From the NCBI RefSeq assembly GCF_041929145.1, contig NZ_JBHFNU010000005.1, positions 84,868 through 110,476 of the forward strand: a stretch of DNA of 25,609 bases, read 5' to 3'. Position 1 is the stretch's first letter; every line of letters begins with the position of its first letter. The position numbers and the translations under genes are program-made. Positions 9,139-25,609 of the stretch are shown here, one piece after another. This stretch comes from Aerosakkonema sp. BLCC-F183. Its GTDB lineage: Bacteria; Cyanobacteriota; Cyanobacteriia; Cyanobacteriales; Aerosakkonemataceae. The notes beneath the pieces were generated by a model, which saw nothing but the letters and a program-made list of their open reading frames with translations, was not told where the DNA came from and did not search any database.

Positions 9139-9187
9139 AAAGTCAAAAGTCAAAAGTCAAAAGTCAAAAGTCAAAAGTCAAAAGTAA
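9139..9187. repeat. Heptanucleotide tandem repeat (AAGTCAA x~7)
   Basis: aaagtcaaaagtcaaaagtcaaaagtcaaaagtcaaaagtcaaaagtaa immediately after the large-subunit stop codon. Heptamer tandem repeats are a known cyanobacterial genome feature. Confidence 0.9.
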
Positions 9188-9445
9188 CCCACCGACACTT
9201 ATCTCATCGTAGGGTGGGTTAGGCACGGGCAATAACTTCCACACTTTCAAGCAATAATTAACTCTCCGTGCCGTAACCCACCGACACTTATCTATAACAT
9301 ACATAAACACTTTAGCTCTTTCGGATTTATGGGTAAAAATGTTTGTTAATGTTACAGTTGAGTGTGATGGTGGGTTACGGCACGGGAACTAAATTATCGG
9401 TTGAAAGTGTTGAAATTATCGCCCGTGCCTAACCCACCCTACGCT
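9186..9445. mobile_element. MITE-like nested-palindrome repeat element, copy 1
   Basis: The outer arms are TAGGGTGGGTTAGGCACGGGCAATAA ... TTATCGCCCGTGCCTAACCCACCCTA. The inner arms are CCGTGCCGTAACCCACC ... GGTGGGTTACGGCACGG. A second homologous copy lies at 24180-24497 in the same orientation. Confidence 0.7.
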
Positions 9446-9489
9446 TAGATACTGGGCTGCTTTTACTCTTGCAGGGAATTGGTTATAAT

Positions 9490-10117: not shown

Positions 10118-10225
10118 AACCCCACCCCCAACCCCGACCCGTCCACGGGGAGGGGAGAAACAGGTGTAGGGGGAGGGGTGAAACAGGTGTAGGGGGAGGG
10201 GTGAAAGAGAGAGGGGCTTCAGGGG
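10118..10225. repeat. C-run/G-run region with a 23-nt direct repeat (GAAACAGGTGTAGGGGGAGGGGT x2), a potential G-quadruplex or long hairpin
   Basis: cccacccccaaccccgaccc followed by ggggaggggag and two copies of aaacaggtgtagggggaggggtga. It lies between the convergent fibrillin gene and the last cas-operon gene. Confidence 0.8.
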
Positions 10226-10285: not shown

Positions 10286-10906
10286 CTAATCAACGCATTT
10301 GACGCTTTTGATACTGCCATTTTTTAAGGCTGTTATTTTTACTTTTACGATCTGCCCTTGCTGGAGAGAACTCGCTTTTTTCGGTTCTTTTTCAGTCAAT
10401 TTAATCGCGCCTAATATTTGATATGTCACTTTATTACCTGCAATGCCAATAACTTGGGCATCTAAGATTTGATCGATCGCAAAATCTTGAGATTGCGTCA
10501 CTTGTAAAATTTCGGCTTGCCGAGTAGATTCTATGACAGGAGCGGTAATTTCGCCGATCGGTCCCGCTTCTTTGTAGTAGCGCATTAAGCGAATTGACCA
10601 CCCTAAAATTTGCAGGATAGCTGTTACATCATTTTGATAAAGTTGCAAATATTTGGTGCAAGTTCTTTCTATGCTATCATAATATCCAGATGTTTTTTGG
10701 CTATATCCGATTCTATTACCTTGGCGGGAAAGTGTTTGCAGATAACTAAAAAATTTCGTGCCGGCATTTTCGCGATCGCTATAAGCGCGAAGATATGCCA
10801 TCACTTTACCCAATTCATTTACATCAGTCTCTTCTTTGACCAATGTTTGAGCAATTCCGTGAGCAATTTGCCATTGAATTTCGGTTAAATCGGTGGTAGT
10901 AAACAT
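10286..10906 (-). CDS. Hypothetical protein, last gene of the type III-D-like cas operon (candidate III-D-specific accessory, Csx19-like?)
   Basis: 206 aa with ATG at 10906, immediately abutting the stop of the upstream Cas7 gene. It has a helical N-half and a beta-rich C-half (GQIVKVKITALKNGSIKSVKC). No family was recognised, and the assignment is by operon position only. Confidence 0.45.
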   Translation of the reverse strand: MFTTTDLTEIQWQIAHGIAQTLVKEETDVNELGKVMAYLRAYSDRENAGTKFFSYLQTLSRQGNRIGYSQKTSGYYDSIERTCTKYLQLYQNDVTAILQILGWSIRLMRYYKEAGPIGEITAPVIESTRQAEILQVTQSQDFAIDQILDAQVIGIAGNKVTYQILGAIKLTEKEPKKASSLQQGQIVKVKITALKNGSIKSVKCVD

Positions 10907-11947
10907 TTAATAAACTCCGTCTATAGGTTCTCTAGTTGTCGGCCATTGCAGAACTTGTTGTAACTCTTTCAATTGTTGAGATTGTACTAATTGGGTGGAT
11001 GCCGATCGCACGGCTTTTTGGATGAATTCCTGGAGGGAATTACCAGTCAGAGAAGGGGGTGAGGTGTTGTAATTGCAATAGCGATCGCGCCATTCTTTCT
11101 CTTTTTCAATCCGCTGAATTTCTGTTACTTCAACTACCATCGTTCCCATACCAATTGGTTTACCGCCTCCCACTTTTAAAGCAATGGGATTTTTACTATC
11201 TTGTCCTAACACAATCAACAGCGTTCCCAATTCGGCTAAACTTAAATTCCTAAATCCAATTTGGGTAGTAAATATCAATTCTTTTCCCGCTTGTTGAACT
11301 GGAATACCTTGTTGTCCTTTGTCAATCGATTTAACAAAATGGTAATAAAACTTGCGTCCAGCTATTCTTCCATTTATATAGTAGCCGGCACGTTGTTTTC
11401 TGGGTGCATAAAGTGAGGGCATAAATCCCACACTCCACTGTGCATTGTTGAGAATCGCATCAGAAAAGCGAATCAAACCTTGCCAATCCATTGCCCCAAA
11501 AACTTGACAAGCCGGACAAAGTTTAGTATTATCTTTACATTCCCGATAACCATTCGGAATTTGACTCTGTTCTGCCTTAGTTTTGCACAAACAACTGCGC
11601 GTAATTGCTTCATAAGTAGAACGCACAACGCCTTTAAGGGAACTTCCCGGAACGATCGACTGTCGATCGCGTCCAACGGCAGTTTTGATTAGGGGGATAT
11701 TTTTGGCATTTCCCGATAAGTCGCTACCCATTGCGACAACGCCAGAAGCGACAAAAGTAGCGGTTTTCACCGTTAAGCGCAGAAAGATTGTACCGCTAAT
11801 GCGATCGCTTTTAAACCGATCTTGTCCAATTGGTTTATCTCGCGGTGGCGGCTGACTGGGTAGAGAAATGAGTTGATAAGGTTTTGGATTAGCAGTTTCT
11901 GGTGCAGGATTAGGTTGAGGGCGTCGAATTGGTCGATTGTTAGTCAT
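10907..11947 (-). CDS. Cas7-group RAMP (Csm5/Cmr6-like) with Zn-finger insertion
   Basis: 346 aa. It has a RAMP N-terminus (PYQLISLP), a G-rich segment and the Cas7 signature IVPGSSLKGVVRS. A Cys cluster (CLCK...C...CPAC) is present. It overlaps the upstream gene by 4 nt. Confidence 0.8.
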   Translation of the reverse strand: MTNNRPIRRPQPNPAPETANPKPYQLISLPSQPPPRDKPIGQDRFKSDRISGTIFLRLTVKTATFVASGVVAMGSDLSGNAKNIPLIKTAVGRDRQSIVPGSSLKGVVRSTYEAITRSCLCKTKAEQSQIPNGYRECKDNTKLCPACQVFGAMDWQGLIRFSDAILNNAQWSVGFMPSLYAPRKQRAGYYINGRIAGRKFYYHFVKSIDKGQQGIPVQQAGKELIFTTQIGFRNLSLAELGTLLIVLGQDSKNPIALKVGGGKPIGMGTMVVEVTEIQRIEKEKEWRDRYCNYNTSPPSLTGNSLQEFIQKAVRSASTQLVQSQQLKELQQVLQWPTTREPIDGVY

Positions 11948-12459
11948 GGGGATATCTCAACAGTGAGAGCGATAAAATGTACCGTGGAAGTTTCGCGATC
12001 GATGAAATAACGTTGAGCTATTTTAACTTTGTTTGGATTATTCTTTTCATCCTTAATTATGGGATTGAGAGCGTCAGGTACAATGAATTTTTGGGGAAAC
12101 CGAGTTTCATCGGGACGATAAATGTAAGCAGGTCGTTGTTCTACTTTCCACTCTATCTTTTTATCTTGTTCCTTTTTTTTATCTCGTTCCTCATCAATAG
12201 AAGTGAAAGCAGAATCTTTACCAGTTATTGACAGCAATAATACTGAATAACCTTGACCTTGTTGTTTCCAACGCAATTCGCGATCGCAATTAAACATTTG
12301 TCCTTCTGGACTGGGAAATTCTTTTAATTCCTCTACAATTCCACTGACGCGATCTTGCCACCGAAGAAAGTAATAAGTAGGCTTTTTCGCAAATTTATCT
12401 AGCAATTTTCTGAGATCTTCAGATGAGTCAACTTGTTTAATACCTACAAAAGGATTCAT
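11944..12459 (-). CDS. Hypothetical protein embedded between Cas7 genes (candidate all1473-like III-D signature gene)
   Basis: 171 aa with ATG at 12459, coupled by 4-nt overlaps on both sides. No motif was recognised. Its position between two Cas7 genes matches the uncharacterised gene of canonical III-D loci. Confidence 0.45.
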   Translation of the reverse strand: MNPFVGIKQVDSSEDLRKLLDKFAKKPTYYFLRWQDRVSGIVEELKEFPSPEGQMFNCDRELRWKQQGQGYSVLLLSITGKDSAFTSIDEERDKKKEQDKKIEWKVEQRPAYIYRPDETRFPQKFIVPDALNPIIKDEKNNPNKVKIAQRYFIDRETSTVHFIALTVEISP

Positions 12460-13451
12460 GCTGCTGTCCCTTGCAATATTTCACACCAAGCTTCTACAGT
12501 TTGCGAGAACAATTCACGCACTTTATCGCTCCCTTCCCAACTCTGTTGCACGCCAAAATTAAACTCAATTGGTGTTGTTTTTGGTGATGTTTCTTTCAGA
12601 TCGTTAGGGGGAAAACCATAGCGGTTTCTTTCTTCATCTTCCAGAAACATTCCCGCACCCAATAAGGAAGTAAGCGGCCATTTTGTTTCTGTGCCGATCG
12701 CGCTAATTTGTTCATCTTTTATAATACAGCCAGGATATTGGACAACGGCTGAATTTAACTTAACTTCCACCAATCCCAAACCGCGAGATTTAGCGAAACC
12801 TAATCCAAACCAACCTTGATTTAAATCGCGCAATACTAAACCGATTAATCCTAATTGTGCAAGGGTAAAATTTCTGAGATGAATTTTGGTATGAAATTCT
12901 CCGGCGGTACAAACTTGAAAATTAAATGGCCCTACAGCGACCGAACCAAACACTCTGTCAATAGCTACGCCATTGCGTTCTTCAATTTTCAACAATTTGG
13001 GATTAACCGGATAAGCATCTTCTATTCTGACGCGACTGGCGATCGCAGTATTGCCAAACATTTGGGAAATAAAACAAGATTGCTTGTATAATTCCGCGCC
13101 GGGATGGGGATGATTTTTATTTTTCTTTTTCCAGTTGTCTAGGTAAAGATTGATGTTTTTTTGTTCGTCTTTGTCGTCGCTGAGAGGGTCGCTTGCCCAG
13201 ACAGTGGTAGAATTATTAGGACGGCGATCGCTTCCCACCGTCCGCACAATTCGTTCTGCATGGGCGCGAATAGCACCTTTGAGAGAACTTCCGGGTAAAT
13301 AAATTGTCCGTCCTCCGCCGTGATAGGTTTCCACAAATTCCATATCCGGTTTCGTAGGGTCAGCACCTTCTTTGCCAGATTTAATTAAGATAGGGCCAGC
13401 AGGTGTGATAGTTAATTCTATTGTACATTGATTGACAAATCGTTTAAACAT
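12456..13451 (-). CDS. Cas7-group RAMP (Csm3/Csm5-like)
   Basis: 331 aa with the Cas7 signature IYLPGSSLKGAIRAHAERI and a G-rich loop (GFAKSRGLGLVE). Confidence 0.8.
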   Translation of the reverse strand: MFKRFVNQCTIELTITPAGPILIKSGKEGADPTKPDMEFVETYHGGGRTIYLPGSSLKGAIRAHAERIVRTVGSDRRPNNSTTVWASDPLSDDKDEQKNINLYLDNWKKKNKNHPHPGAELYKQSCFISQMFGNTAIASRVRIEDAYPVNPKLLKIEERNGVAIDRVFGSVAVGPFNFQVCTAGEFHTKIHLRNFTLAQLGLIGLVLRDLNQGWFGLGFAKSRGLGLVEVKLNSAVVQYPGCIIKDEQISAIGTETKWPLTSLLGAGMFLEDEERNRYGFPPNDLKETSPKTTPIEFNFGVQQSWEGSDKVRELFSQTVEAWCEILQGTAA

Positions 13452-14319
13452 TGCTGTTTTCCTCGGCAGTGGTATTAGCAGACATAAAAGTTCTTAAATG
13501 GGTAATCAAAGCATTTGTCCATTCCTGTTTGAGGAAAGCAATTCTTTCTGGATAGCATGAGTAAATATCCATTTCTCCGTTAACCAGATTTTGCAGGTAA
13601 TTTAGTAATAACTCTGGATCGTCTTCTGCATCAAACCATTGCATTTCTTTAATATCCAATTTCACCACACCCAATCCGCGAGAACGTCCACCGCCTAACG
13701 GAATTTGTTCAGTTTCAAATTGGTGCAATCCGATGGTTAATAAACCTAATTCCCAAGCTTCGGCGTTTTCAACTACTGCTTTAAACTCAAATTGCGTTCC
13801 TGCCGGTACAACTTGAAAATCGTATAATTTCGCATCAGCAGCAGTTTCGGTATCGCGATCGATCGCAACTCCATCTCGTTCTTGATATTGTCCAAACCAA
13901 CTATCTAGTAATACCGTTAAATCTCGTACTTGAAATTTACTGGCGATCCAAGGAGAACCGAATAAGCGAGAAACTAAATCGGTTTCTTTTAAAATTGCAG
14001 TGGTGAGGTCAAAATCATCTTTGTTTTCGTCCTTAAGTTGCTTGATTTCATCAGCTTTTAGCGACCATTCATCCTCTACGGCGGGATTGGCGACTAATTT
14101 GCGATCGCTTCCCACAATCCCGCGCAGGAAGCTTTCTAAACGCGATCGCAAAGCACCTTTAAAACTCGACCCCGGAATTAAAGGTCGTCCTACCGCATCT
14201 TTAATTACTGGTAAATCCGAACCAATTGGTTCTGTGGAACGTCCCGCGCCAATTCGCAAAGCGGTGATAGTTGTGAGAGTTCCGGTGATTTCCAAACGAC
14301 TTTTGAAAGTATCAAACAT
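13444..14319 (-). CDS. Cas7-group RAMP (Csm3/Cmr4-like backbone subunit)
   Basis: 291 aa with the N-terminus LEITGTLTTITALRIGAGR ... PLIPGSSFKGALRSRLESFL and a C-terminal G-rich loop GGGRSRGLGVVKL. A SD-like AGGTGGA precedes the ATG at 14319. Confidence 0.85.
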   Translation of the reverse strand: MFDTFKSRLEITGTLTTITALRIGAGRSTEPIGSDLPVIKDAVGRPLIPGSSFKGALRSRLESFLRGIVGSDRKLVANPAVEDEWSLKADEIKQLKDENKDDFDLTTAILKETDLVSRLFGSPWIASKFQVRDLTVLLDSWFGQYQERDGVAIDRDTETAADAKLYDFQVVPAGTQFEFKAVVENAEAWELGLLTIGLHQFETEQIPLGGGRSRGLGVVKLDIKEMQWFDAEDDPELLLNYLQNLVNGEMDIYSCYPERIAFLKQEWTNALITHLRTFMSANTTAEENSNV

Positions 14320-14339
14320 ATCAATCCACCTATTTTTAC

Positions 14340-15500
14340 TTACTTTTTAATGCCTTCTCTTTTGTAAATATACTCATGTGTTCCGTAGTATCGCAGAGAT
14401 AATCTTCCTCCATCTGCAACTTTGCAGCTAACTCGTCGAGTCTGAGCCGTAATGTTGATATGGTCGATATTTGTATTCTGATATCTACGAAGCCTCAGAA
14501 TATCATCGTCTTTCAAAGCGCTGATCCCATCTCCATGTTTGAATAATAGGTAAGCTGCTCTAGCTAGCCTTTCTTGCAACTGAATCCTTTCCTGAATGTC
14601 TAAAGTATTTTGGTAATCTTTGCAAAAGCTTTGTTCATAATCCAATTTAGGAAATTTGACTAAATCTTCCGAAAGTAACTCGTCTTTGCATTGATTCCAA
14701 ATCAATTTTCCCCATGTCGATAAAGTCATTTCTTTGCCATCAACCAAAACCCATTCTTCCGGGACTTTCTTTGCTTCTTCCCAAGATGTAGGAATTTCTC
14801 CAACATCCATCATTGCTAGTTGTACTTTGTATGGCTCAACCTTGGAGCGATCTACCTTTACAGGAAGTTGTGGAATTTTGATTACTTCATTCGATCCCTC
14901 AAAAACATAGACAATTTCATTAGCATAAAACATTCCAATGGTATTGAAGTAGCCTTGCAAAGCTTTGAATCCACCAACTAAATTGAAATAAATCTGGTAT
15001 TTGCTACTTTTAGAAGCAATAATTATTTCTTGCAGTGTGGGAATTAATTTTGCCATTCCCTCTATAAAGGTAGCGCTACTGGCGATGGACAGTCCAGGCT
15101 GTATACAAGTACTGGTGTTATTCAATCCGTTACTTTTCAAAAATGACTCTACAATGTTTGCAGTAACTCTAGCTTGTGCTGTGTCAGTAGCAACTAATAA
15201 ATGAGTATCTTCTGTACCCTGTTCTAGTTTATTATTGTACAAACCATAGATGCCATTCAGTTCCGCGCTCAACTCTCGGATTTCTTCAAGCTCGGTATCG
15301 TCATTGTAAAGCTTTTCTTCCGCCCTATTCTTCAACTTTTCAATAATATGGGAAATATCCTCATGATATTTTTTTATTTCATCAACAGTATAATTTGCAG
15401 TTTGCTGTAGGCACTTAGACCAGCTATCTGGATCGATATCGCGGTCAATTTGATTGGTCAATAAACTTGTACCGACAGTGGAAATTACGAGTCGAGGCAT
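14340..15500 (-). CDS. CARF-domain protein with C-terminal putative HEPN-like domain (Csm6/Csx1-type cOA-activated effector candidate), embedded in the effector operon
   Basis: 386 aa with ATG at 15500 and AAGGAG upstream. The N-terminal Rossmann strand MPRLVISTVGTSLL and the later NLVGGFKALQGY motif match the CARF core signature (hhhhS.G.S ... TGG[TF]K). The C-terminal region carries RYYGTH (R-x4-H), which is compatible with a HEPN RNase motif. Confidence 0.55.
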   Translation of the reverse strand: MPRLVISTVGTSLLTNQIDRDIDPDSWSKCLQQTANYTVDEIKKYHEDISHIIEKLKNRAEEKLYNDDTELEEIRELSAELNGIYGLYNNKLEQGTEDTHLLVATDTAQARVTANIVESFLKSNGLNNTSTCIQPGLSIASSATFIEGMAKLIPTLQEIIIASKSSKYQIYFNLVGGFKALQGYFNTIGMFYANEIVYVFEGSNEVIKIPQLPVKVDRSKVEPYKVQLAMMDVGEIPTSWEEAKKVPEEWVLVDGKEMTLSTWGKLIWNQCKDELLSEDLVKFPKLDYEQSFCKDYQNTLDIQERIQLQERLARAAYLLFKHGDGISALKDDDILRLRRYQNTNIDHINITAQTRRVSCKVADGGRLSLRYYGTHEYIYKREGIKK

Positions 15501-15534
15501 AGAGATACACTCCTTTGTAAACGATAGTTAAAAC

Positions 15535-15951
15535 CTAAATTTCACCTTTATTTTTGTATACCAGATAGCGTGCGCCATAACCAAGATAGCGACGGGTTAG
15601 CTCTAGCCAAATTTGGTTATATTCATCAACTTCAGCCGCTTTTGCTATTTCTTTAGCAGCCTCCTTAATGTCTTTATCGATGTTACGAATAATTTTTGCT
15701 GCTAAAGATTGTTCGCCTTTACCCCACTTTTTGTCACGCCCTACCTGATAACGCAAAAAGTTTTTGATTACTTCTGTGCTTTCAGTTGTATCAGCAACTC
15801 TTAGAAGATTACGAAATTGGGATTCTTGTAAATCACCATAAGAGCTTTTATCATCTAAAGCATCTTGGATCTTAGTCACTAGCTTATCCTCAGCTTGGCG
15901 AATACCTTTTTGAATCTTGAGTTGTTTTTGCGGATCGAATGGTTCGTTCAT
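15535..15951 (-). CDS. Cas11-like small subunit (Csm2/Cmr5-type, alpha-helical)
   Basis: About 138 aa from the ATG at 15951, which forms an ATGA overlap with the Cas5 stop (the track start at 15990 is TTG). It is small, Lys/Glu-rich and helical, and sits directly after Cas5 as in III-D loci. Confidence 0.5.
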   Translation of the reverse strand: MNEPFDPQKQLKIQKGIRQAEDKLVTKIQDALDDKSSYGDLQESQFRNLLRVADTTESTEVIKNFLRYQVGRDKKWGKGEQSLAAKIIRNIDKDIKEAAKEIAKAAEVDEYNQIWLELTRRYLGYGARYLVYKNKGEI

Positions 15952-17222
15952 ACAGGTTCCTCCTGAAATACAAGATGAAATTCGTTGCAAACTTCAATTT
16001 GACCGAAGCCTTCACAGGTGCGATCGCCGACACCTACAATCTCTAAATTTTCTAATGCTTTCATCCAAGCATCTCGTTGTGCAGTGCTAAATAAATACAC
16101 CGCTCCTTTATTAGTTATCAGTTCCACATCTTTCATCAATCCCCAAGCAGAATTCCAGCCAGAACGATAGTCATAGCTACTATACGCTGCTTCAAGTTTT
16201 AAGGTGGAATCTTTAACGCCAGTAAACTTTTTTAGCATTTCTTCCGAAATTACAGTGGTACCCTGCCAGTTATCGGTCAAAATCGCCTCAGAGTGTAAAT
16301 CCAAAGAAAAGTAGGTGCGATCGATCGCCAATTCTTTTAAAGGACTACCAAATACTCTCCATTCCTTCCAACGTTGTCCAAGTTTTTCATTAAAATTCTC
16401 GACTTTTGCAACTACATTGGGTTTAATATCTACAATTTTAGCTTGAATTTTGACTTTTCCCAACCCGCGTGAAGTAGAACCACCTAAGCGGAAATTTTCA
16501 CTGCGATCGAGAATAAATTGCGTCAGAGAATCTGCCAAACTATCTTCTACCAAAATTGAGCCGCAGTAAATAACAGGTTTGGGCTTTTTACCTTTCGATT
16601 CAGATTCATTCAGAACTTCTATGCTGTAAAGTATTTCCTCTTCAGCCGTAGCCAGTCTTCGATTAATACCTACTCGTGTTAATAGGCGTTTATTAACACT
16701 ATGAGCGTGATATTTATCATTGAGTTTGCTGTAAAAACAACTATGTGCATCGACTCGCCCTCCGTCTGTTGGACAATTGGGATCGTAGGGATAACCGTAA
16801 CCTTCAGCACAGAAGCGATCGATCAGAGTATCGAAAACGCCGTTACTTCCTTTTTTAGACGTAAACCCAGAGCTATTTTTAGAACTCAGCGCAGTAGTAG
16901 GTAGCACCCTAACTTCTGGTTGTAATATAGTTTTATCCTTTATTTCTATAGTTGCAGGATAAGCATTTTGAAAAATTGCGGGAGTATCATCAAGAAATAA
17001 AGCCTGAAAATCACCGCCATTTTCTGAGAAATCTTGGCTCCATTCCTGCTGTTGTTCGCTTTGTTGTAGCTGACGATATTTTTGCAAAATTTGAGCGGCA
17101 ATTGCACCCCGAATTACGCTTCCGGGAATATAACTTTCTACTTCGCTAATTGAACCGCCTGGTTTCTGGCGTGCTATTGCCAGAGGAGATAAAGCTTTAA
17201 TTTCTAATAGAATGCGCTTCAT
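15948..17222 (-). CDS. Cas5-group RAMP (Csx10/Csm4-like)
   Basis: About 424 aa from the ATG at 17222, which forms an ATGA overlap with the upstream stop (the track start at 17252 appears to be TTG). It has LEIKALSPLAIARQ...YIPGSVIRGAIAAQ, reminiscent of the Csm4 L.L.F.SPLHIG...IPGS.IKG pattern, and a C-terminal G-rich loop GGSTSRGLGKV. Confidence 0.65.
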   Translation of the reverse strand: MKRILLEIKALSPLAIARQKPGGSISEVESYIPGSVIRGAIAAQILQKYRQLQQSEQQQEWSQDFSENGGDFQALFLDDTPAIFQNAYPATIEIKDKTILQPEVRVLPTTALSSKNSSGFTSKKGSNGVFDTLIDRFCAEGYGYPYDPNCPTDGGRVDAHSCFYSKLNDKYHAHSVNKRLLTRVGINRRLATAEEEILYSIEVLNESESKGKKPKPVIYCGSILVEDSLADSLTQFILDRSENFRLGGSTSRGLGKVKIQAKIVDIKPNVVAKVENFNEKLGQRWKEWRVFGSPLKELAIDRTYFSLDLHSEAILTDNWQGTTVISEEMLKKFTGVKDSTLKLEAAYSSYDYRSGWNSAWGLMKDVELITNKGAVYLFSTAQRDAWMKALENLEIVGVGDRTCEGFGQIEVCNEFHLVFQEEPV

Positions 17223-17959
17223 TGCACCCTTCCTTTTGCCAAGAATTGCCAAACAGTTTCATCCACTTGAATTTCAGGTAAATCCCAATGTAACCAACCT
17301 AAACCCGCAGATTTACTGCCGCCCAGTGCGTGAATATGCCGCAAACCAGCCCAAATCAGCGCTTTAGCATAATCAGGTCGATCGGGTGTTACGGGTGTTA
17401 GGCTTGGTTGGATGTGAATATTACCCTCAAATCTGAGTTTAAGATTTACGGGAGAGGTTTCCAAAAAGTAAAGTTTTTTCTCCTCCGCAGTGCGGCGACG
17501 GCGATTAATCGTCACACCCGGACGGATAACTTCAGGTAAATTTTCAGGGTCTTCTGTGCAAACTAAATCATCAAAGATTACTCGTGATGGTAAAACCGGA
17601 TCGCCAAATATTTGGCTAATTAAACAGTGATATGTTTCATTATACCCTGCAACTTGATACTCGCTACGACAAAATTCGCTCGGTGAACTTTCTCGCCGTA
17701 AAACCATTTTTTTAGGGCTAGGAGATTTACAAATTGCCCAACCCAAAGCCCTTGCAAATTTTTCGCATTCATGGCGCAGGCGACCCTTGACTTGAGAGCC
17801 AGGAATTAGCAGATTTGTTTGGGAGTCTCGAACAATCGGTTTATCTGCTAGGGAACTAGAAGAACCACCAGCACCTACACACAAAGCCGTATCAATTATA
17901 GCAGTAATTTTGTGTGTTTCTACTTCAATTAAATTTGATAAATTTCTGAGAAATATCAT
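17219..17959 (-). CDS. Cas7-group RAMP, small (Csm3-like)
   Basis: 246 aa with CVGAGGSSS...LLIPGSQVKGRLRHE. Its start overlaps the cas10 stop (TGATG). Confidence 0.75.
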   Translation of the reverse strand: MIFLRNLSNLIEVETHKITAIIDTALCVGAGGSSSSLADKPIVRDSQTNLLIPGSQVKGRLRHECEKFARALGWAICKSPSPKKMVLRRESSPSEFCRSEYQVAGYNETYHCLISQIFGDPVLPSRVIFDDLVCTEDPENLPEVIRPGVTINRRRRTAEEKKLYFLETSPVNLKLRFEGNIHIQPSLTPVTPDRPDYAKALIWAGLRHIHALGGSKSAGLGWLHWDLPEIQVDETVWQFLAKGRVQ

Positions 17960-20346
17960 CAGTCAGCCTCCTGAGTTACAAGTCTTTCCTGGGATGTTCC
18001 AGAATCTTCAGATGTCTCAATGAAGTCATAGAGGTCTACCAGTTCTCGCCAAATTGTTTCGTAGGTTGTCTCTCCTGGTTCTAGAATGGACATCCAAGGA
18101 GCTAGATTACCCTTATTATTTTGCTCTTTTGGTTGACACCAAGCTTCTTCAAACTTTTCTTTTAATTCTTGTTGTCCTTGCTGGAGTCGAACTCGAAAAT
18201 AACGGTAGTTAAGAATAGCGGTATGCTTGCCCCGTTCCAGTAGATCGCGAATTTGGTACAGTTGCGATCGCGGAAATTTTGCCTTGTTCAATGCGTCGAT
18301 TGTCTCAATCAATCCTCCTAATTCATGCAAAGTATAAGGGGCCGCATATAGCTTTAAAGTAGGAGTGTGTATGTCCTTAATTTTCACCTCTGGATTTTTA
18401 ATTAATGCCTGCTTTCTGAACTCGTCGATATCGGATGAAATCATCGTTACAGCTTTCAGCACTAAAAAATCAACCGTACCGCCACAATAGCCATATTTTC
18501 TCAACTTCTTTGCCTTGCTTTTAGCAGATTTAAGTAACTGCTCATAAAGGTTTTTTGCGTAGTAAATAGGAGTGTTGTAAGCTGTAATCAACACGCCGCT
18601 CGATATACTTAGTTGACACTGAGAAAGTTCTGCTTTTTCGCTTGAGTAGCGGTGGCATTTTTTGAGGTCAATTGGCTTTTCAGATTGCTTAGTATGATAG
18701 TTGCCTTGAATTTCTACACCTGCCAGAGATACTTGTTTGAGGAGGATTTTTTCAAACTGCTCGCCAATCATTTTAGCGATCGCCAATGCCTGAGAAGCTG
18801 GCACAATCAAAATAATATCATCTCCGCCAATCGTAATAATTTCAAAGGGATGAATGAAATCACCATCCTGCCATCTTGAATCTGGATCTTTAATTCCTCT
18901 AATCTGGCGGGGATGAAGATTATATGCTAAGGCTTGATAAACAGCATACTCAGTTGCGTTGGCCACATCTTCGCTAAACTCTTTGTATTTTTCTGGCGTA
19001 GTGCATATTTTCTGAATAAATCCTCCCATGTTGTTGCCATCAGCATAAATATAGGCAACAAAACCATTGCTGACATTGCCTAAATGCGTTAATGATTTAG
19101 CAATTTTAACATCATCCTGTTGGCAGGTTTGATAATATTGCTGACATTGCTCGGAATTTTTCTGTAAAAATTCCTCGAATTTGTCAACCCAACCTTCTAT
19201 TATTCCAGGTTGCCATTCTAGCCCGGTATTTTTGTACCATTCTGGTGTTTTAGCTAATCCCGTTTTAGCGCGATCGCCTACTCGTCTTTTACGTGCAGAA
19301 ACTTCAGAAAATTGAGATTCGCTGGGCAATAAAGGTGGCTGAACGATCGCCACAGCAGATCTGCGATCGCCTTCATCCCTTCTCAAATAAGGATGAGTTT
19401 CAAACATCGGTGGGTAGCGGCGACTGGGGCGATCGGGAAAATCATTTCCACTGCGGCGTTGATTAAACAGAATCGCCAATTTAGTTGTTAATTCATTAAA
19501 ACTTTTCCGGTTAGCAAAAGCTTCTTCAACAGATACCGGATCGCTAATACATGGCTCATTTGGCTTTTTCTCCAAGTTGCCAAAGTAAGCCCGAACCAAT
19601 GGTTTATTATATTCTTGACGATACCGCTCTAACCAGAAATTATTTTCAATGGGGTCTTGTAGCAGACCAAATCGAGTTTCCATTAACCTAAAGGTATCGG
19701 CGACTGCACAGGAATTAGCTGCTAAAGTTTCCTCGGTGTAACGCTTTTCAATAGCATTAGCTAAGTCATCTGCAAAAGCCGCTGGGCAAAACGCCAGAAT
19801 ATTACCGCCAGTTGAGTAGATGATTAGTTCAGGAATTAACGCATCTGAAAATTTTGGTTCATTAGGAAAGTTGTCGTTAAGCCATGTTCTTACTTCTTGA
19901 CACTGGATAGTGTAGTTGTAGAGAATTGATTCAGGGTTTTTGTTAAAAAAAGCAGGCAAATCGCTCAGATTGATTCGATCTAGTAGTGCAGAAGCACCCC
20001 GAATATCTGGGAGTTTTGCCGCTTCAAATACGTATTGTTTAATCTTGGTTGCACCGCCGTAAACCAAGCCTATTCGAGAGTTCCAAAGGATAGAATGCTG
20101 TTCGGCCAATAACTTTAACTCATCTAACGTTTTGGGAAACTTTAGAGTTTCTAATTGCTTGACTTGTTCGAGGAGCGATCGCATTTTTTCTGGAATATCT
20201 GTCCCAGCGTGCAATGCTTCCCGCATCTGGTGCAATTCCTTGATATCAAATTGCGGTTGGCGCTGTTCTCCCCAAGCCAGACACCAGGCGATTCCAACGA
20301 AAAGCTTTCCTGATGCTGTCTTTATGTCTTGTTGAAAGTTACTCAT
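17959..20346 (-). CDS. cas10: Cas10 large subunit of a type III CRISPR-Cas effector complex (III-D-like, no recognisable N-terminal HD domain, intact GGDD cyclase motif)
   Basis: 795 aa with ATG at 20346. The palm/cyclase motif FEIITIGGDDIILIVPASQALAIA is present. No H..HD..D motif is found in the first ~150 aa. It is the first gene of a coupled RAMP operon with the order cas10-cas7-cas5-cas11. Confidence 0.85.
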   Translation of the reverse strand: MSNFQQDIKTASGKLFVGIAWCLAWGEQRQPQFDIKELHQMREALHAGTDIPEKMRSLLEQVKQLETLKFPKTLDELKLLAEQHSILWNSRIGLVYGGATKIKQYVFEAAKLPDIRGASALLDRINLSDLPAFFNKNPESILYNYTIQCQEVRTWLNDNFPNEPKFSDALIPELIIYSTGGNILAFCPAAFADDLANAIEKRYTEETLAANSCAVADTFRLMETRFGLLQDPIENNFWLERYRQEYNKPLVRAYFGNLEKKPNEPCISDPVSVEEAFANRKSFNELTTKLAILFNQRRSGNDFPDRPSRRYPPMFETHPYLRRDEGDRRSAVAIVQPPLLPSESQFSEVSARKRRVGDRAKTGLAKTPEWYKNTGLEWQPGIIEGWVDKFEEFLQKNSEQCQQYYQTCQQDDVKIAKSLTHLGNVSNGFVAYIYADGNNMGGFIQKICTTPEKYKEFSEDVANATEYAVYQALAYNLHPRQIRGIKDPDSRWQDGDFIHPFEIITIGGDDIILIVPASQALAIAKMIGEQFEKILLKQVSLAGVEIQGNYHTKQSEKPIDLKKCHRYSSEKAELSQCQLSISSGVLITAYNTPIYYAKNLYEQLLKSAKSKAKKLRKYGYCGGTVDFLVLKAVTMISSDIDEFRKQALIKNPEVKIKDIHTPTLKLYAAPYTLHELGGLIETIDALNKAKFPRSQLYQIRDLLERGKHTAILNYRYFRVRLQQGQQELKEKFEEAWCQPKEQNNKGNLAPWMSILEPGETTYETIWRELVDLYDFIETSEDSGTSQERLVTQEAD

Positions 20347-20662: not shown

Positions 20663-21220
20663 CTATTGAGGTTTGAGAAAGAGGTTTAACTCCAAATGGA
20701 AGATGTTGCGAATCTTAAGCAACAAACATACACCAGCGTGCGGAATCTTTGCCATATCCCGCAGAGTCGGACATAATCCATTTACAGCCACATTTTCAAC
20801 TGCTGAACTTATAATTTCAACAGGCTGCTTCTCCGATTTGTTGGTAGGGTGGTTTGTAGGATGGAATTCCAGGCTTTGCGGGTGATGGAGTGGCGCTTTT
20901 GCTTGTGAAGTGAGCAAGATGCCCAAATCTGTAGTCGCCCATGTTGGCTGCCCTATAATGGGTGTAGCCGCGAGAACAGCTTGCTTCCCCTCTCCAAAAA
21001 CTAAAATCGTTGATGGAGAAAAAACCTTTGAGATTGAGCCAGGATTGTACGAAAGGCTCAAATTACCTAACAACCCACAGGTTAAATTGCTGGATTGTTG
21101 ATTTTGTAAGGTTTGGAGGAAACAAGCTGTTCTCGCTGGGCTTTGAGTAGTTAATTGAGTTTGGAAAGTTATCTCGCTTAAGGAAGCGTTTTTTGTCAAC
21201 TTTGGTATTGCTTGAGGCAT
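20663..21220 (-). CDS. Hypothetical Ser/Thr/Gln-rich protein upstream of cas10
   Basis: 185 aa ORF with ATG at 21220, no clear SD and low complexity (HPTNHPTN). It could be non-coding leader or promoter space instead. Confidence 0.25.
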   Translation of the reverse strand: MPQAIPKLTKNASLSEITFQTQLTTQSPARTACFLQTLQNQQSSNLTCGLLGNLSLSYNPGSISKVFSPSTILVFGEGKQAVLAATPIIGQPTWATTDLGILLTSQAKAPLHHPQSLEFHPTNHPTNKSEKQPVEIISSAVENVAVNGLCPTLRDMAKIPHAGVCLLLKIRNIFHLELNLFLKPQ

Positions 21221-21444
21221 ACTTATACCTACAATGAAAGGATAGATTATAGTATAACCTAGCTCTACAGGGAAAACTTGTCTTTTCCTATATGTTCAAA
21301 AACCGTAATTTATTTTCCAAAATATTAATACCAAGCAAGTCATGGCTGGATACCCGATGGTTAGGTTGACTTCTGGATCAAATTTGTGTATACTTTATAA
21401 GTCAAATATCAGAATAATAGAAAATGCCGTTTTTCAATGGTTAG
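21221..21444 (+). promoter_or_regulatory. AT-rich CRISPR leader-like region preceding degenerate repeats (also contains the divergent promoter space)
   Basis: About 220 nt of AT-rich sequence (ttattttccaaaatattaatacc..., tgtgtatactttataagtcaaatatcagaataatag) lie immediately upstream of the first repeat-like unit. Confidence 0.4.
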
Positions 21445-21550
21445 ACAAAAACCTAAAAACTCCCCGTAAGGGGATTGAAACAGGCATTTCTCACTGAAAT
21501 TTGATTAGTTGACTAAGTTCTCAACTACTTCCCCGCAAGGGGACTAAAAC
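21445..21550 (+). CRISPR. Minimal or degenerate CRISPR array with two repeat-like units and one ~32-35 nt spacer, and a possible third decayed unit at 21655-21684
   Basis: Unit 1 is ...AACTCCCCGTAAGGGGATTGAAAC and ends at 21481. Unit 2 is GTTCTCAACTACTTCCCCGCAAGGGGACTAAAAC (21517-21550). Both have a CCCC-N4-GGGG hairpin and a 3' ...[T/C]T[G/A]AAAC handle. From memory they closely resemble the 37-nt cyanobacterial type III-D repeat GTTCAACACCCTCTTTTCCCCGTCAGGGGACTGAAAC. A third fragment reads TTCCCCAAATGGGGAC. Confidence 0.5.
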
Positions 21551-21684
21551 CTCAAAACTGCTACACAGTGCTTATTGCTAGGTAAACCAGCGATCGCCTA
21601 CTACCACTTGCTGAAAAAAGGACAGTAGCTTATGAAAGCTTTGTTCTGGTGTGTCGGCTTATTCCCCAAATGGGGACGGAAAGA

Positions 21685-22281
21685 TTACGAACTCGCCATC
21701 GCACCTTGCTGCAACTCTCTCACCACCCATTCCAATTCCTCCACCATCCAACTGCTACTCAACTGGCGGTAAATCTGCAATTGTTCTTGATAAAGCCATA
21801 ACACCCCTTCCTTACCGCCTCGGAAATAATGCCAAATTTCTTCGCCAAATTGCCTAAAATTAACCAACATAGTCCGCGCATTGTGCAACTTATCCGCCAG
21901 CATCACCCTTTGCACTGGCGGACAAGCATCTCGTAGCTGTTGGAGATATTGCTGTTTGTGTTCTTTCCAAGTCGGATATAAACTCGGTTCTGGCTCGGTG
22001 CAACCTTCTATAATATGGAAAACGCGATCGCCAAATCGCTGCAAAATTTCCGCCTTCGTTACTTCTCCCCCTCGGTCTTCCAGCGCATCGTGCAATAAAG
22101 CGGAAATTGCCTCATCTTCATCTCCTCCATCTTCCAACACCAAAGCCGCTACGCTCAACAAATGGGCAATATAAGGAGTACCTGTAATTTTCCGTTGTTG
22201 GTCGCCATGAAGTTGCGCCGCATATACCAACGCTTCCTGAAAACGCGAAGTTAAAATTGTCAAACACCGTTCATTCTTCAT
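21685..22281 (-). CDS. Small alarmone hydrolase-type HD-domain protein (RelA/SpoT hydrolase fold, Mesh1/SAH-like)
   Basis: 198 aa with ATG at 22281. The HD motifs LHGDQQRKITGTPYIAHLLSVAALV and AISALLHDALEDRGG match the (p)ppGpp-hydrolase HD_4 signature. It overlaps the upstream WYL gene by 11 nt. Confidence 0.8.
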   Translation of the reverse strand: MKNERCLTILTSRFQEALVYAAQLHGDQQRKITGTPYIAHLLSVAALVLEDGGDEDEAISALLHDALEDRGGEVTKAEILQRFGDRVFHIIEGCTEPEPSLYPTWKEHKQQYLQQLRDACPPVQRVMLADKLHNARTMLVNFRQFGEEIWHYFRGGKEGVLWLYQEQLQIYRQLSSSWMVEELEWVVRELQQGAMASS

Positions 22282-23686
22282 AAATTTTCCATTCTTTTTC
22301 GACTTCTCTCTTCGCCTGTTCTCGTAATTCCACAGGGAGGAGAATTTCTACATTCGGTCGCCACGCACGCAAGCGCTGCATTACGTTAGGATCGCCTTGG
22401 CGATATTGCGCTTGGTAATAAGCATCTTGGGGAGAACATTTGCGCCAAATATTTAACATCTTTTGTTGTTGTTCTCCCTTTAAGTTCTGCCGAATTAATC
22501 GTTCTACTTCTTGATATGCCACTCGCGCAAAGGTAGCATGGCGCATAGTATTGCGGATGTAGCGATTATCCCACTCGCGATCGAACCTCAATAGTAGCAG
22601 TTGTGGGGGTTGATAGTAATCAAAACCCCAAACTTCTGCGATCGCTAATTGGATATCATCGGGAATAGGCAGAGTCTTCTTTTGATATCGCCGTTTCAGC
22701 GCCACCGGAACTTGCGGATCGTCCCAACTCAAAGGGATCGAATCCTGAATGCGATCGAGCCGATAATTGCGAAAATCTAATTTTCCCGATTCGTCTTGCG
22801 GAACTTCGCCAAACGCACACAAATACGGCCCTCTCTGATAATAATAAATGCAAACGGGATAAACTACCACCGACAAAGTTGTTTGCCATACCGCACTTTC
22901 ATAACTTAACAAAATCGGCGGTACAACTTCCTGTTGCCAAAGTTCCCGCAGTTGTGCTTGCCATTCTTCGACACGATCGATCGAGTCTTGCGGAATCACA
23001 TATTCCAGATGGATAAAAAAGCGCTGCTGACCATTCAATCGCGTGGAAAGATTATCTGCGATCGCAGCCAAATCCGGTTGCGTGAGAAAATCCAAATTGT
23101 AAGCTATCAGACGAGAATCTGATTTTTGGATCGAACTCGGCGTCCGTGGATATTTCTTAACCCGATAATACCGATTTCCTTGGCGTTTCAGCCACCCGAT
23201 TTCTATCAAAACTTGCAAATCGCCATAAAGCGATCGTCTTGTCAAGCCAAACAAACGAGTATCGTGCAACAATTCTTTAAGGTTATCCGGTAACAAATGA
23301 TGTTCCCGCAAAGATTGTTCAAACGATCGCTCTTTTTCCTGTACTTCCGGCTTCCCTAATTCCCCTTTCCACTTTGACTGAGTTAAATTGAAATCAGAAC
23401 CAAATAACCAAGCAGCAACAGTTTTCGCACAACGGCATTTCGGGTCGTGCAACGCCGGAATTTCTTCTTCTCTAGTATGAGTCGCAGTAAAAAAAGCATC
23501 TCGCCATTCAGGATAAGTAAAATTTTCCGGCAAATTCAACTTAATGCCGGCTTCCCCATACAGAAAGTGCAACCACACCCACAACCGCACCGCCTGTAGC
23601 AATCTTTGTTTTAAATCTCCCCGCGCCAGCCATTGCAGCAGTTCCACACGAGGAGGTTCATTCCAAAAGGGGTTGACCGTTTCCAA
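22271..23686 (-). CDS. WYL-domain protein with winged-HTH (putative ligand-sensing transcriptional regulator associated with the type III locus)
   Basis: 471 aa with an apparent TTG start. A wHTH-like segment RLFGLTRRSLYGDLQVLIEIGWLKRQGNRYYRV is present. The WYL-domain core YPVCIYYYQRGPYLCAFGE...GKLDFRNYRLDRIQDSIPL matches the P..L.y..g.WYL.a....R.FRLdRI consensus. Confidence 0.6.
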   Translation of the reverse strand: METVNPFWNEPPRVELLQWLARGDLKQRLLQAVRLWVWLHFLYGEAGIKLNLPENFTYPEWRDAFFTATHTREEEIPALHDPKCRCAKTVAAWLFGSDFNLTQSKWKGELGKPEVQEKERSFEQSLREHHLLPDNLKELLHDTRLFGLTRRSLYGDLQVLIEIGWLKRQGNRYYRVKKYPRTPSSIQKSDSRLIAYNLDFLTQPDLAAIADNLSTRLNGQQRFFIHLEYVIPQDSIDRVEEWQAQLRELWQQEVVPPILLSYESAVWQTTLSVVVYPVCIYYYQRGPYLCAFGEVPQDESGKLDFRNYRLDRIQDSIPLSWDDPQVPVALKRRYQKKTLPIPDDIQLAIAEVWGFDYYQPPQLLLLRFDREWDNRYIRNTMRHATFARVAYQEVERLIRQNLKGEQQQKMLNIWRKCSPQDAYYQAQYRQGDPNVMQRLRAWRPNVEILLPVELREQAKREVEKEWKIYEE

Positions 23687-23799: not shown

Positions 23800-24156
23800 A
23801 TGTCAGCCATTCAATTACAACTGTTTCGGGAGCAAATCCAGTCAGGTCTGGCCTACCAACACCTGCACATCCAAATCAACACACCGGATGGACTGATTGC
23901 ACCAGCCGACCTGAAAAATTTATCTCTACCGGAGGAAATGGTCTGGAGTCAAGGCGTTGTCATTGAAGGTAAAGCGCCAATTTGGTTGTACGCCTATTTA
24001 GTTCACGCTTGTCACCCCGCCGCTTGGGTAGCTTGCTTCGACCCCCGCTTAGAAGGTGCAGTTATAATTGCTACACACAGTCGCCAAGTCGCACTCGGAG
24101 ATATTCTCAAACTCAACTTACCCGCAGCCATATTTCGCAAAACAACAGGTACGTAG
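23800..24156 (+). CDS. Csx3-like (Crn3-type ring nuclease candidate) stand-alone domain protein
   Basis: 118 aa with ATG at 23800. It is paralogous to the N-terminal ~115 aa of the 24533 gene (GKAPIWLYAYLVHACHPAAWVACFDPRLEGAVIIATHS versus GIAPTWLYANLVERCWQAPWIGCYTAPKNQIVVIQS). The stand-alone plus NTPase-fused pair next to a type III locus is the arrangement reported for Csx3 in cyanobacteria. Confidence 0.4.
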   Translation: MSAIQLQLFREQIQSGLAYQHLHIQINTPDGLIAPADLKNLSLPEEMVWSQGVVIEGKAPIWLYAYLVHACHPAAWVACFDPRLEGAVIIATHSRQVALGDILKLNLPAAIFRKTTGT

Positions 24157-24497: not shown

Positions 24498-24532
24498 TGC
24501 TAAATCCAAAAAACTCAACAAAAGGAATAAAA

Positions 24533-25465: not shown

Positions 25466-25556
25466 AGCGCCAGCAGACCCGGATTTGGTACAACGCGGTG
25501 GGGTAGCGCCCATCTGAGCCGACACAACACCCTTTAAATTATTTATTTAAATAAAA

Positions 25557-25609
<53 letters not shown>

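Follow-up and report, generated by a model that had tools for sequence, protein, structure and literature searches.

What guides a type III CRISPR-Cas complex whose locus holds neither a canonical array nor the genes for crRNA (CRISPR RNA) processing and spacer acquisition, and why would such a locus keep a two-repeat element with a promoter of its own? The question is posed by a 25,609-nucleotide (nt) stretch of the cyanobacterium Aerosakkonema sp. BLCC-F183 (assembly GCF_041929145.1, contig NZ_JBHFNU010000005.1, positions 84,868 to 110,476 of the forward strand; hereafter the window, with positions counted from its first letter). Here a ten-gene type III-D operon headed by cas10 is followed, on its right, by an orphan open reading frame (ORF), orf185, and by a pair of degenerate repeats enclosing a 39-nt pseudo-spacer, which we term the mini-array. 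The region is almost certainly a type III-D1 interference and signalling module, with eight complex genes and a Cas10 that lacks the HD domain and has an intact cyclase site; taken as a whole, a III-D module combined with a regulatory mini-array is its best explanation, and on balance a probable one. We put it at slightly better than an even proposition that the mini-array is the sole local guide gene, that its conserved pseudo-spacer is not immune, and that its crRNA-like (cr-like) RNA loads the III-D complex and pairs with the orf185 transcript running into cas10.

A conserved two-repeat element adjoins the operon

On the plus strand, a promoter-like site (TTGACT-17-TATACT, 21366–21394), conserved in the close relative L138, precedes a first degenerate repeat (R1, 21445–21481), which carries the hairpin CCCCGTAAGGGG and the 8-nt tag ATTGAAAC and reads ...CTCCCCGTAAGGGGATTGAAAC. 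The pseudo-spacer AGGCATTTCTCACTGAAATTTGATTAGTTGACTAAGTTC (21482–21520) and a second degenerate repeat (R2, 21521–21550, ...TTCCCCGCAAGGGGACTAAAAC) follow on the same strand. The likeness of R1 and R2 is confined to their 3′ ~22 nt, the 5′ halves being degenerate in a way that canonical repeats are not; this 3′ core is the 3′ end of the 36–37-nt repeats found in arrays of up to 38 units (metagenomes; L139, L140). An Rfam scan returned nothing over threshold, and its two sub-threshold CRISPR-DR matches both fall at R2.

We compared the window with more than 15 loci (numbered with the prefix L), gathered through relatives of Cas10 (51–71% identity), relatives of the operon's CARF-RelE protein and the one relative of orf185, and drawn from Coleofasciculus, Iningainema, Rhizonema, Jaaginema, Brasilonema, Calothrix, Microcoleus, Anabaena and metagenomes. 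Two-repeat elements stand beside most of the III-D loci examined; some diverge from a small ORF that precedes cas10, and others lie ~1 kb beyond the downstream end of csx21. The element of the window recurs in L138, where it is kept whole, with its promoter, an identical R1 and two changes in the pseudo-spacer, and in the sister species A. funiforme (L001), where R1 and R2 are identical and the spacer and leader unrelated. The A. funiforme pseudo-spacer is in turn homologous to that of Brasilonema (L131), and near-identical pseudo-spacers (ACNCCTCTAGTATGGTGATTGAAYAG...) are common to Calothrix, Microcoleus and one metagenome contig (L133/L135/L109).

A sequence-only reading that preceded this analysis had offered the element as a minimal array and possible crRNA source for the operon. 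A genuine minimal immune array, directed at an unsampled phage or plasmid and supplying the operon's only crRNA, would fit the strong promoter, and the wholly different spacers of BLCC-F183 and A. funiforme between identical repeats look superficially like spacer turnover. Against an immune array, the A. funiforme spacer is common to Brasilonema and that of the window to L138; the repeat 5′ halves are degenerate, unlike those of canonical arrays; and the best match of the spacer is the cell's own adjacent transcript, with a self-type anti-tag. No phage or virus protospacer for it was found among 50,697 phage records or in IMG/VR searched with 22-mers, a search of limited sensitivity. An immune function is thus very improbable, and the mini-array behaves rather as a conserved, self-directed cr-like RNA.

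Other repeat-like features occur nearby and in relatives. A lone degenerate repeat (R3, ...TTCCCCAAATGGGGACGGAAAG, 21647–21683, plus strand) abuts the stop of the adjacent HD gene and belongs to the HD-side module; it may be all that is left of a full array. Calothrix parasitica (L133) has a second, different two-repeat element (ACTCTTTCCGAACC.ACTCCCCTCA.CGGGGA..., 3309–3404, minus strand) between its WYL and csx3 genes. A tiny ORF with a Shine–Dalgarno sequence and GTG start that runs through R1 in L109 and L133 was dropped from consideration, being conserved neither in L135 nor in the window.

Pseudo-spacers are complementary to adjacent transcripts

Each locus was scanned for complementarity to its own pseudo-spacer and the result compared with shuffles. 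In the window, the predicted target site (21116–21162, minus strand) lies in the orf185 transcript, 358 nt away: 21124–21162 pairs with pseudo-spacer positions 1–39 (27 of 39 Watson–Crick, plus two G:U), and 21119–21123 pairs with tag positions −1 to −5. One in 1000 shuffles reached this pairing window-wide and none of 2000 did so within ±1.5 kb; a type III-aware score of 20.5 compares with 9.0 at the next-best site and a shuffle maximum of 16.

Relatives show targets in two arrangements. Co-oriented targets lie upstream of the mini-array in L135 (score 52 against a shuffle maximum of 28, with a 22-nt perfect run; 901 nt upstream), L034 (35 against 24; 661 nt), L109 (32 against 25; 912 nt), L010 (32 against 27; 866 nt), L066 (32 against 25; 1279 nt) and L063 (42 against 34; 1480 nt), and opposite-strand targets lie ~300–360 nt away in L131 (30 against 27) and L122 (31 against 27). 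The polarity of every target is such that the crRNA would pair with the mRNA of the adjacent ORF. Target genes include toxins of the Gp49/HigB-like (L135, L109), HigB-like (L010) and YoeB (L066) types (profile matches Gp49 PF05973 2e-20, HigB-like PF05015 4e-14, YoeB PF06769 9e-19), with the sites in the 5′ untranslated region or 5′ end; the counterpart in the window is orf185, an orphan directly upstream of cas10.

The pairings also carry marks of a type III register. Across the five ungapped pairings, non-Watson–Crick positions occupy 13 of 23 spacer positions divisible by six and 14 of 118 elsewhere (p = 1e-5), in a register that the 8-nt tag had set beforehand, and no other mismatch phase is enriched; Cas7 flips out every sixth nucleotide in type III complexes (PMC11026444). 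In the window and L138 the tag pairs with the target flank over positions −1 to −5; in L135, L034 and L131 the pairing covers −2 to −4. A matching anti-tag represses Cas10 but leaves RNA cleavage intact (PMC7214462). Because the mismatches fall where Cas7 flips nucleotides and the target flank pairs with the tag, the complex would be expected to bind or cleave its target while Cas10 stays silent. Spacers of L135 and L109 differ at positions 24, 33 and 37, and their targets have changed correspondingly. Canonical spacers behave otherwise: 2 of 124 tests on 62 spacers from full arrays rose above all shuffles, against ~9 of 22 for mini-arrays (Fisher 4e-7), and L141, a true two-repeat array with intact repeats, had no local target above shuffles.

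Must these similarities reflect a function? A plain III-D module beside a decaying array remnant would need no regulatory guide, the resemblance to the neighbouring sequence being an old self-spacer relic or chance. Full arrays of that family of repeats do occur at equivalent sites in relatives, R3 resembles such a remnant, the window pairs at only 27 of 39 positions and some mini-arrays have no detectable target. Decay sits poorly, however, with pseudo-spacers kept across cyanobacterial orders, with a promoter kept in L138, and with a target in 8–9 lineages that always has RNA-compatible polarity; nor does it predict the six-nucleotide mismatch phasing, the recurrent anti-tag pairing or the failure of canonical spacers in the same test. 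We judge a remnant unlikely, though it keeps some real weight.

orf185 may be constrained as RNA

The predicted target, orf185 (20663–21220, minus strand), lies between the mini-array and cas10 and may be described as an orphan ORF or transcript. Profile searches gave it no family match, and among 1.84e9 representatives it has a single relative, the L138 copy (1748–2305); weak syntenic similarity extends to same-position ORFs in A. funiforme (L001) and Brasilonema (L131). Its AlphaFold2 (AF2) model has a predicted local distance difference test (pLDDT) score of 27. With no profile match, effectively no homologs and a model of that quality, orf185 was set aside as a recognisable protein.

The 185-codon frame is open in both the window and L138, and the two copies differ by 4 synonymous and 23 non-synonymous changes, as compared with 159:124 for four cas genes summed and 89:68 for cas10 alone. 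Nucleotide identity to L138 is nonetheless higher in orf185 (94.6%) than in cas10 (92.7%) or the flanking intergenic DNA (90.2%). Because a 4:23 ratio coexists with this higher identity, orf185 may be constrained as an RNA, serving as the cas10 operon's leader or as an RNA toxin, and not as a protein.

Points that weigh against a regulatory guide

Several observations count against a self-directed guide RNA. The whole case for one is computational, the target comparison spans ~8 independent lineages, and with no cas6 in the window the processing of R1 and R2 is putative. Pairing in the window is imperfect, and its gapped +2/−3 score, which 14 of 60 shuffles attain, falls short of significance. 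No local target rose above shuffles in L001, in either array of L133 (despite its conserved spacer) or in L136. Since orf185 has neither a confident fold nor any trace of purifying selection on a protein, a toxin in the window would be no more than putative. In the one systematic survey, a large one, Shmakov et al. found mini-arrays near 10–16% of type III loci, with no positional conservation and no targets, and judged them degraded repeats without function (PMC10120712), a conclusion that the pattern read here from sequence contradicts for this III-D clade.

The predicted fold of the precursor is a further such point. The plus-strand region 21400–21570 folds at −48.6 kcal/mol (z = −5.5 against shuffles), with the leader paired to pseudo-spacer positions ~1–26 and enclosing the R1 hairpin, so that the spacer could be sequestered; the fold may be a decoy, a processing substrate or nothing. 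Similar leader:spacer complementarity is present in L109 and L034 and is weakened in L138.

On the minus strand, moreover, the R1 hairpin is followed by GTTTTTAGGTTTTTG, a terminator-like arrangement directly downstream of the HD gene. The R1 and R2 hairpins might on this basis be mainly terminators or insulators between the HD-WYL, orf185 and cas10 units, which are convergent or divergent, with no guide RNA made at all. We give that explanation little credence: R2 has no T-run, both repeats close with the canonical ...ATTGAAAC tag and are of a family known from arrays of 20–38 repeats, a plus-strand promoter faces the repeats, L138 keeps the element though cas6 rather than the HD gene follows it, and the spacer:target pairing is left unexplained.

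A proposed two-mode complex

How might one complex serve both defence and self-directed control? The products of eight genes (Cas10, Csx10/Cas5, Cas11, four Cas7 paralogs and Csx19) would form a crRNA-guided complex on crRNAs with an 8-nt tag. Foreign RNA with a non-matching anti-tag would prompt Cas10 to make cyclic oligoadenylate (cOA), probably cyclic tetra-adenylate (cA4) because genes for Cami1 and Csx3/Crn3 are present. cA4 would then activate the Cami1-like CARF-RelE ribonuclease to cut ribosome-bound mRNA, halting translation, and the Csx3/Crn3 ring nucleases encoded upstream would degrade the signal as a reset; the WYL protein probably controls expression.

Programmed instead by the cr-like RNA, the III-D complex would be turned on the orf185 transcript (toxin transcripts in relatives), which would be cleaved or blocked with Cas10 held silent by the anti-tag and, in most relatives, by a Cas10-proximal segment that stays unpaired. 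Were the effector or the guide lost or inhibited, the target would be derepressed, amounting to an addiction of the CreTA/CrePA kind or an anti-anti-CRISPR safeguard; for the window, a CreR-like feedback on the effector operon is the alternative. We hold it evenly balanced whether a cyanobacterial III-D clade has such hard-wired guides, aiming an RNA-targeting effector at its own transcripts (HigB/Gp49/YoeB 5′ regions; here the orf185 leader) with Cas7 acting and cOA and Cami1 off.

The operon encodes a type III-D complex with a cyclase-only Cas10

The ten ORFs that the sequence-only reading had described as a III-D-like operon are all present, running in one orientation on the minus strand from 20346 down to 10286 in the order cas10, cas7, csx10, cas11, Cami1-like CARF-RelE, csx7, cas7, csx19, cas7, csx21. 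Its unnamed and unknown members can be identified, gene 5 as a Cami1-like CARF-RelE protein and the others as Csx19 and Csx21. Three profile libraries (NCBIfam, Pfam and PADLOC) agree on the identities.

Cas10 (795 residues, 17959–20346) matches TIGR02577 (161 bits), PF22335 (Palm2, 9e-18) and PADLOC Cas10 (6e-57), and a search against PDB sequences gave it no match. It has GGDD at residue 507 and ADGNNMG at 435, and no H-D dipeptide anywhere in the protein; ~91 residues precede Palm1, the profile matches beginning at residue 92–94. The earlier description of a Cas10 without HD but with GGDD was therefore accurate, as was the deduction from it that immunity must rely on signalling. An HD domain is present in just 3% of III-D Cas10s (PMC11229360).

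The subunits that mark the subtype are clear. Csx10 (424 residues, 15948–17222) matches TIGR02674 over its full length at 441.2 bits (cutoff 177.3; E 4e-132) and PADLOC Cas5_IIId at 1e-132; it is by definition the III-D-specific Cas5 variant (PMC11026444). The small subunit Cas11 (138 residues, 15535–15951) is of III-D type (PADLOC PDLC01474, 'CAS-III-D effector_SS', Csm2, 1e-58), and Csx19 (171 residues, 11944–12459; PADLOC Csx19 CAS-III-D 7e-51) is a core III-D subunit that touches the crRNA between Cas5 and Cas10 (PMC11026444). Csx21 (206 residues, 10286–10906; PADLOC Csx21 6e-90) is a III-D/III-A-associated protein.

Four Cas7 paralogs complete the complex: a Csm3-like paralog a (246 residues, 17219–17959; PF03787 4e-19, PADLOC Csm3 III-A/III-D 4e-35), csx7 or paralog b (291 residues, 13444–14319; TIGR02581 256 bits, cutoff 108; PDB matches to the III-D Cas7 8bmw and to Csm3), paralog c (331 residues, 12456–13451; PF03787 3e-27, PADLOC Csm3 2e-56) and the TIGR03986-like paralog d (346 residues, 10907–11947; TIGR03986 9.7e-41 and 141 bits, below the 161 cutoff; PADLOC 4e-41). 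All four have an Asp in the loop before PGSxxKG (D39, D35, D36 and D76; Asp39 of paralog a precedes PGSxxKG itself and Asp35 of csx7 lies in an IGSDLPVIKD loop), which, judged by eye, may be the equivalent of the catalytic D33 of Csm3. From family membership one would expect crRNA-guided cleavage of RNA every 6 nt, and cOA synthesis triggered by the target.

A type III-B (Cmr) assignment draws on one observation, a Cas10 score above the cutoff of the NCBIfam Cmr2 equivalog model (161 bits, cutoff 79.4). The repeat-associated mysterious proteins (RAMPs), which the sequence-only reading had singled out as decisive should they fall into Cmr families, did not do so: Cmr4 reached at best 25–40 bits (cutoff 87) and Cmr6 ~20–22 bits (cutoff 51.1), Cmr1 and Cmr5 gave no match, and none of Cmr1/3/4/5/6 attained its cutoff, as against strong matches for Csx10, Csx7, the III-D Cas11 and Csx19. 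The probability of III-B is negligible and the III-D call stands.

Two gene starts were revised, csx10 to 17222 (ATG) from 17252 and cas11 to 15951 (ATG) from 15990, as they are also called on a 14-kb Logan contig of identical sequence. The nine junctions are then −1, −4, −4, +34, +20, −8, −4, −4 and 0 nt, so that translational coupling, claimed for almost every junction, holds for the seven that overlap or abut (TGATG, ATGA or 8-nt overlaps) and fails at the two true intergenic gaps (+34 and +20 nt), both of which border gene 5.

A III-D module that signals through cOA with an HD-less Cas10 is textbook. Since this is so, since the layout is conserved in filamentous cyanobacteria, and since NCBI already annotates the locus (naming Csx10, Csx3 and the TIGR03985 protein), the operon is by itself ordinary: a III-D module lacking cas1, cas2 and cas6 is real and already annotated.

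Gene 5 is a Cami1-like effector in a variable slot

Gene 5 (386 residues, 14340–15500) matches PF09651 (1.1e-27), TIGR02619 (1.6e-13) and PADLOC CARF7--CARF_RelE (3.8e-123, residues 1–376). By sequence, its N-terminal CARF domain (CARF7/APE2256) matches APE2256-family chains in the PDB, 8phb included, and its C-terminal 136 residues, the RelE domain, have no significant PDB match; the RelE domain was thus recognised by structure. The AF2 model (pLDDT 88.6) finds as its best Foldseek matches in the PDB the Cami1 folds 8PHB (apo) and 8PHJ (cA4-bound on the 70S ribosome), with E 4e-14 over ~400 aligned columns. On sequence and model together, gene 5 is a Cami1-like CARF-RelE protein, the signalling effector inside the operon.

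Cami1 is a common effector whose cA4-activated, ribosome-dependent activity cleaves mRNA in the A site (PMC11229360). Gene 5 resembles it in the two-domain CARF7 and RelE architecture, the full-length structural match and the setting in a type III locus with a cyclase-only Cas10; it differs in a sequence identity of 17–18% and in a RelE domain invisible to sequence comparison with the PDB. By analogy, gene 5 would be activated by cA4 and cleave in a ribosome-dependent manner.

The slot after cas11 is variable. Most loci examined hold CARF7-RelE there; L009 has CARF7-DUF2103, L007 a Can-like CARF4-PD-DExK and A. funiforme (L001) a Uma2/PDC-S03 nuclease.

Guide supply and the relatives of the module

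No ORF in the 25.6 kb window matches a Pfam, NCBIfam or PADLOC profile of cas1, cas2 or cas6, as the sequence-only reading had concluded, and the window has no canonical CRISPR array. A tblastn search with three Cas6 proteins from close relatives found nothing in the window even at E ≤ 10, and neither orf185 nor the 1.1 kb between cas10 and the mini-array could be retained as a decayed cas6. A Cas6 named for Aerosakkonema was not among the best 120 of 1,239 protein-search matches. Immune crRNAs, Cas6 processing and spacer acquisition would have to come from elsewhere in the genome; type III loci are documented to share crRNA processing and adaptation in trans (PMC11229360, PMC12669027).

The order cas10-cas7-csx10-cas11-[slot]-csx7-(optional PD-DExK insert)-cas7-csx19-cas7-csx21 is kept in more than 12 cyanobacterial loci, and no compared locus showed adaptation genes. 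L009, L010 and L135 have no cas6 or array within ±10 kb. A Cas6 of 370–400 residues is encoded adjacently in Brasilonema, both Calothrix genomes and L138, and L139, L140, L058 and L097 have full arrays of the same family of repeats beside the module. Leftwards of 21569, across the mini-array, orf185 and cas10, L138 shows 92.6% nucleotide identity to the window; on the other side of this point it has cas6 and canonical repeats in place of HD-WYL. The earlier label 'stand-alone' accordingly fits this strain but not the module, and with cas6 or arrays adjacent in L138 and other relatives and supply in trans known, it is a true but unremarkable state.

A recombination breakpoint is apparent at ~21551–21569, just past R2, the left side matching L138 and the right (HD-WYL) side A. 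funiforme. Most relatives (L005, L007, L010, L131, L133, L135, L136) have between csx7 and the third cas7 a 206-residue Cas-associated PD-DExK gene that the window lacks. In L006 and L007 the insertion at this point also holds repeat-like hairpins and small ORFs, with marginal cr-like targets ~1.45 kb upstream, the same distance as the significant L063 target.

The nearest characterised systems are III-D1 (PDB 8BMW) and the III-Dv of Synechocystis sp. PCC 6803 (8S9T; PMC11026444), likewise cyanobacterial, with csx10, Csx19, several non-identical Cas7 proteins, a Csm2-like Cas11 and an HD-less cyclase Cas10; the Cas7 paralogs of the window match 8bmw and 8s9t chains directly. Unlike III-Dv, the window has unfused cas7, cas5 and cas11 genes, as in III-D1. 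Synechocystis III-Dv comes with cas6-2a, adaptation genes and a 56-spacer array (PMC11026444), none of which the window has, and the window differs from both systems in embedding a Cami1 gene in the middle of the effector operon. In lacking cas1, cas2, cas6 and a canonical array it resembles, as do L009, L010 and L135, the type III loci without arrays or adaptation genes that borrow crRNAs, Cas6 or Cas1-Cas2 in trans (PMC11229360, PMC12669027), and is not unusual beside them.

Accessory genes and flanking features

The locus is more than the operon to which the sequence-only reading had confined it. To the right come first orf185 and the mini-array, and then an accessory block upstream of the operon that had been missed: an HD_4 gene and an HTH-WYL/TIGR03985 gene that overlap each other, followed by Csx3/Crn3 and Csx3-AAA. 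The HD_4 protein (21685–22281, minus strand; PF13328 8e-23, with the N-terminal part of TIGR00691) is RelA/SpoT-hydrolase-like, and its substrate could be an alarmone, cOA or another molecule. Its gene is translationally coupled to that of the 471-residue CRISPR-associated HTH-WYL protein (22271–23686, minus strand; PADLOC WYL 3e-162, TIGR03985 294 bits), a pair that recurs beside III-D loci (window, L001, L007, L133, L141, L058, L097); the HD genes of L058 and L097 lie immediately against full CRISPR arrays. On the plus strand follow the 118-residue Csx3/Crn3 ring nuclease (23800–24156; TIGR02579 91.9 bits, cutoff 55.4; PF09620 1e-32) and a 310-residue Csx3-AAA fusion with the P-loop GGSPDSGKS (24533–25465; PADLOC Csx3-AAA 9e-65), whose Csx3 domain reaches 46.7 bits with TIGR02579, under the 55.4 cutoff.

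A MITE-like (miniature inverted-repeat transposable) element of ~270–330 nt with long inverted repeats (TAGGGTGGGTTAGGCACG...CGTGCCTAACCCACCCTA) is present in two copies (9184–9450 and 24180–24510), 80–88% identical to each other across both orientations, which enclose nearly the whole CRISPR module from orf202 to csx3. Short-read assemblies break at these copies, L002 and L003 being ~1-kb contigs with the Csx3-AAA gene alone. The right end of the window is a 61-nt poly-A run (25549–25609, 90% A), ~140 nt past the Csx3-AAA gene; the A. funiforme contig stops at nearly the same place, 62 nt past that gene, and the other available contigs reach no further. An assembly break is the probable cause.

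Between the convergent csx21 and orf202, a C-rich stretch of AACCCC repeats leads into a G-rich 23-nt tandem repeat in 2.6 copies, GGGGAGGGGTGAAACAGGTGTAG; the whole (10118–10215) may be a bidirectional terminator or a G-quadruplex-prone region. The 23-nt repeat (10147–10215) was rejected as the 'array', being G-rich and without spacers. The genes left of the operon are unrelated to it: a xanthine-dehydrogenase-like trio, DUF4360, HhH-GPD and a PD-(D/E)XK and Dam pair. In this last pair a PD-(D/E)XK_11 nuclease gene (192–674, plus strand) overlaps convergently that of a D12-class N6-adenine methyltransferase (646–1506, minus strand), a candidate restriction-modification pair (192–1506) apart from the CRISPR locus. 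The product of orf374 (3929–5053) is of low complexity, rich in lysine, glutamine and proline, and has no family matches; the gene contains a 9-nt tandem repeat (CTAATGAAG, 5.6 copies, 4575–4624) and, as listed, overlaps the start of the 2Fe-2S subunit ORF. A perfect heptamer tandem (AAAGTCA, 6.7 copies, 9139–9185) comes right after the xanthine-dehydrogenase-like large-subunit gene.

Relation to known regulatory crRNAs and significance

CreTA, CrePA, CreR and crlRNAs have been described for type I and V-A systems only (PMC12737573; 10.1101/2024.12.27.630466). The mini-array has much in common with CreTA, CrePA and CreR (PMC10120712, PMC12737573, PMC9458426): two degenerate repeats flank a conserved pseudo-spacer beside cas genes, the pseudo-spacer can pair in part with a toxin gene close by or with sequence ahead of the effector operon, and the logic would be the same, an effector and a cr-like RNA together restraining a harmful or costly gene. 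The differences lie in the effector and in what it recognises. Those systems use DNA-binding Cascade or Cas12a on promoters, with a protospacer adjacent motif and a short seed, whereas the complex here is an RNA-targeting type III, with targets in transcribed 5′ regions, mRNA polarity and mismatches phased at 6 nt. A full immune response is avoided in CreTA and CreR by limited complementarity and here, it seems, by an anti-tag complementary to the tag; and the toxins of the relatives are, unlike that of CreTA, ordinary type II protein toxins (HigB, Gp49, YoeB). Because the targeting of promoter DNA by Cascade or Cas12a is not among its features, the mini-array would work like CreTA and CreR without belonging to them.

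The anti-tag has its own precedent in the tag:anti-tag discrimination of self (PMC7214462), in which, as is predicted from complementarity to tag positions −1 to −5 in the window, Cas10 is repressed and RNA cleavage stays intact. Known cases protect an array's own antisense transcripts; here the anti-tag would form part of a dedicated target that lies elsewhere than in the array.

The operon alone is one more member of a well-known, annotated family, and the mini-array is what matters more. If our reading of it is true, it would be the first type III, post-transcriptional counterpart of CreTA, CrePA and CreR, one that would act even where arrays and cas6 have been lost, and it would account for the retention of a promoter-driven two-repeat element by III-D modules with neither array nor cas6. 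It would yield testable predictions on the small-RNA species, the cleavage sites, the absence of cOA and the derepression of toxins on loss or inhibition of the effector. The tag:anti-tag rule for 'self' would then be usable as a design feature that uncouples RNA silencing from cOA signalling, ordinary protein toxin–antitoxin modules would come under CRISPR control at the level of mRNA, and RNA-targeting type III complexes, too, would have been recruited for self-regulation.

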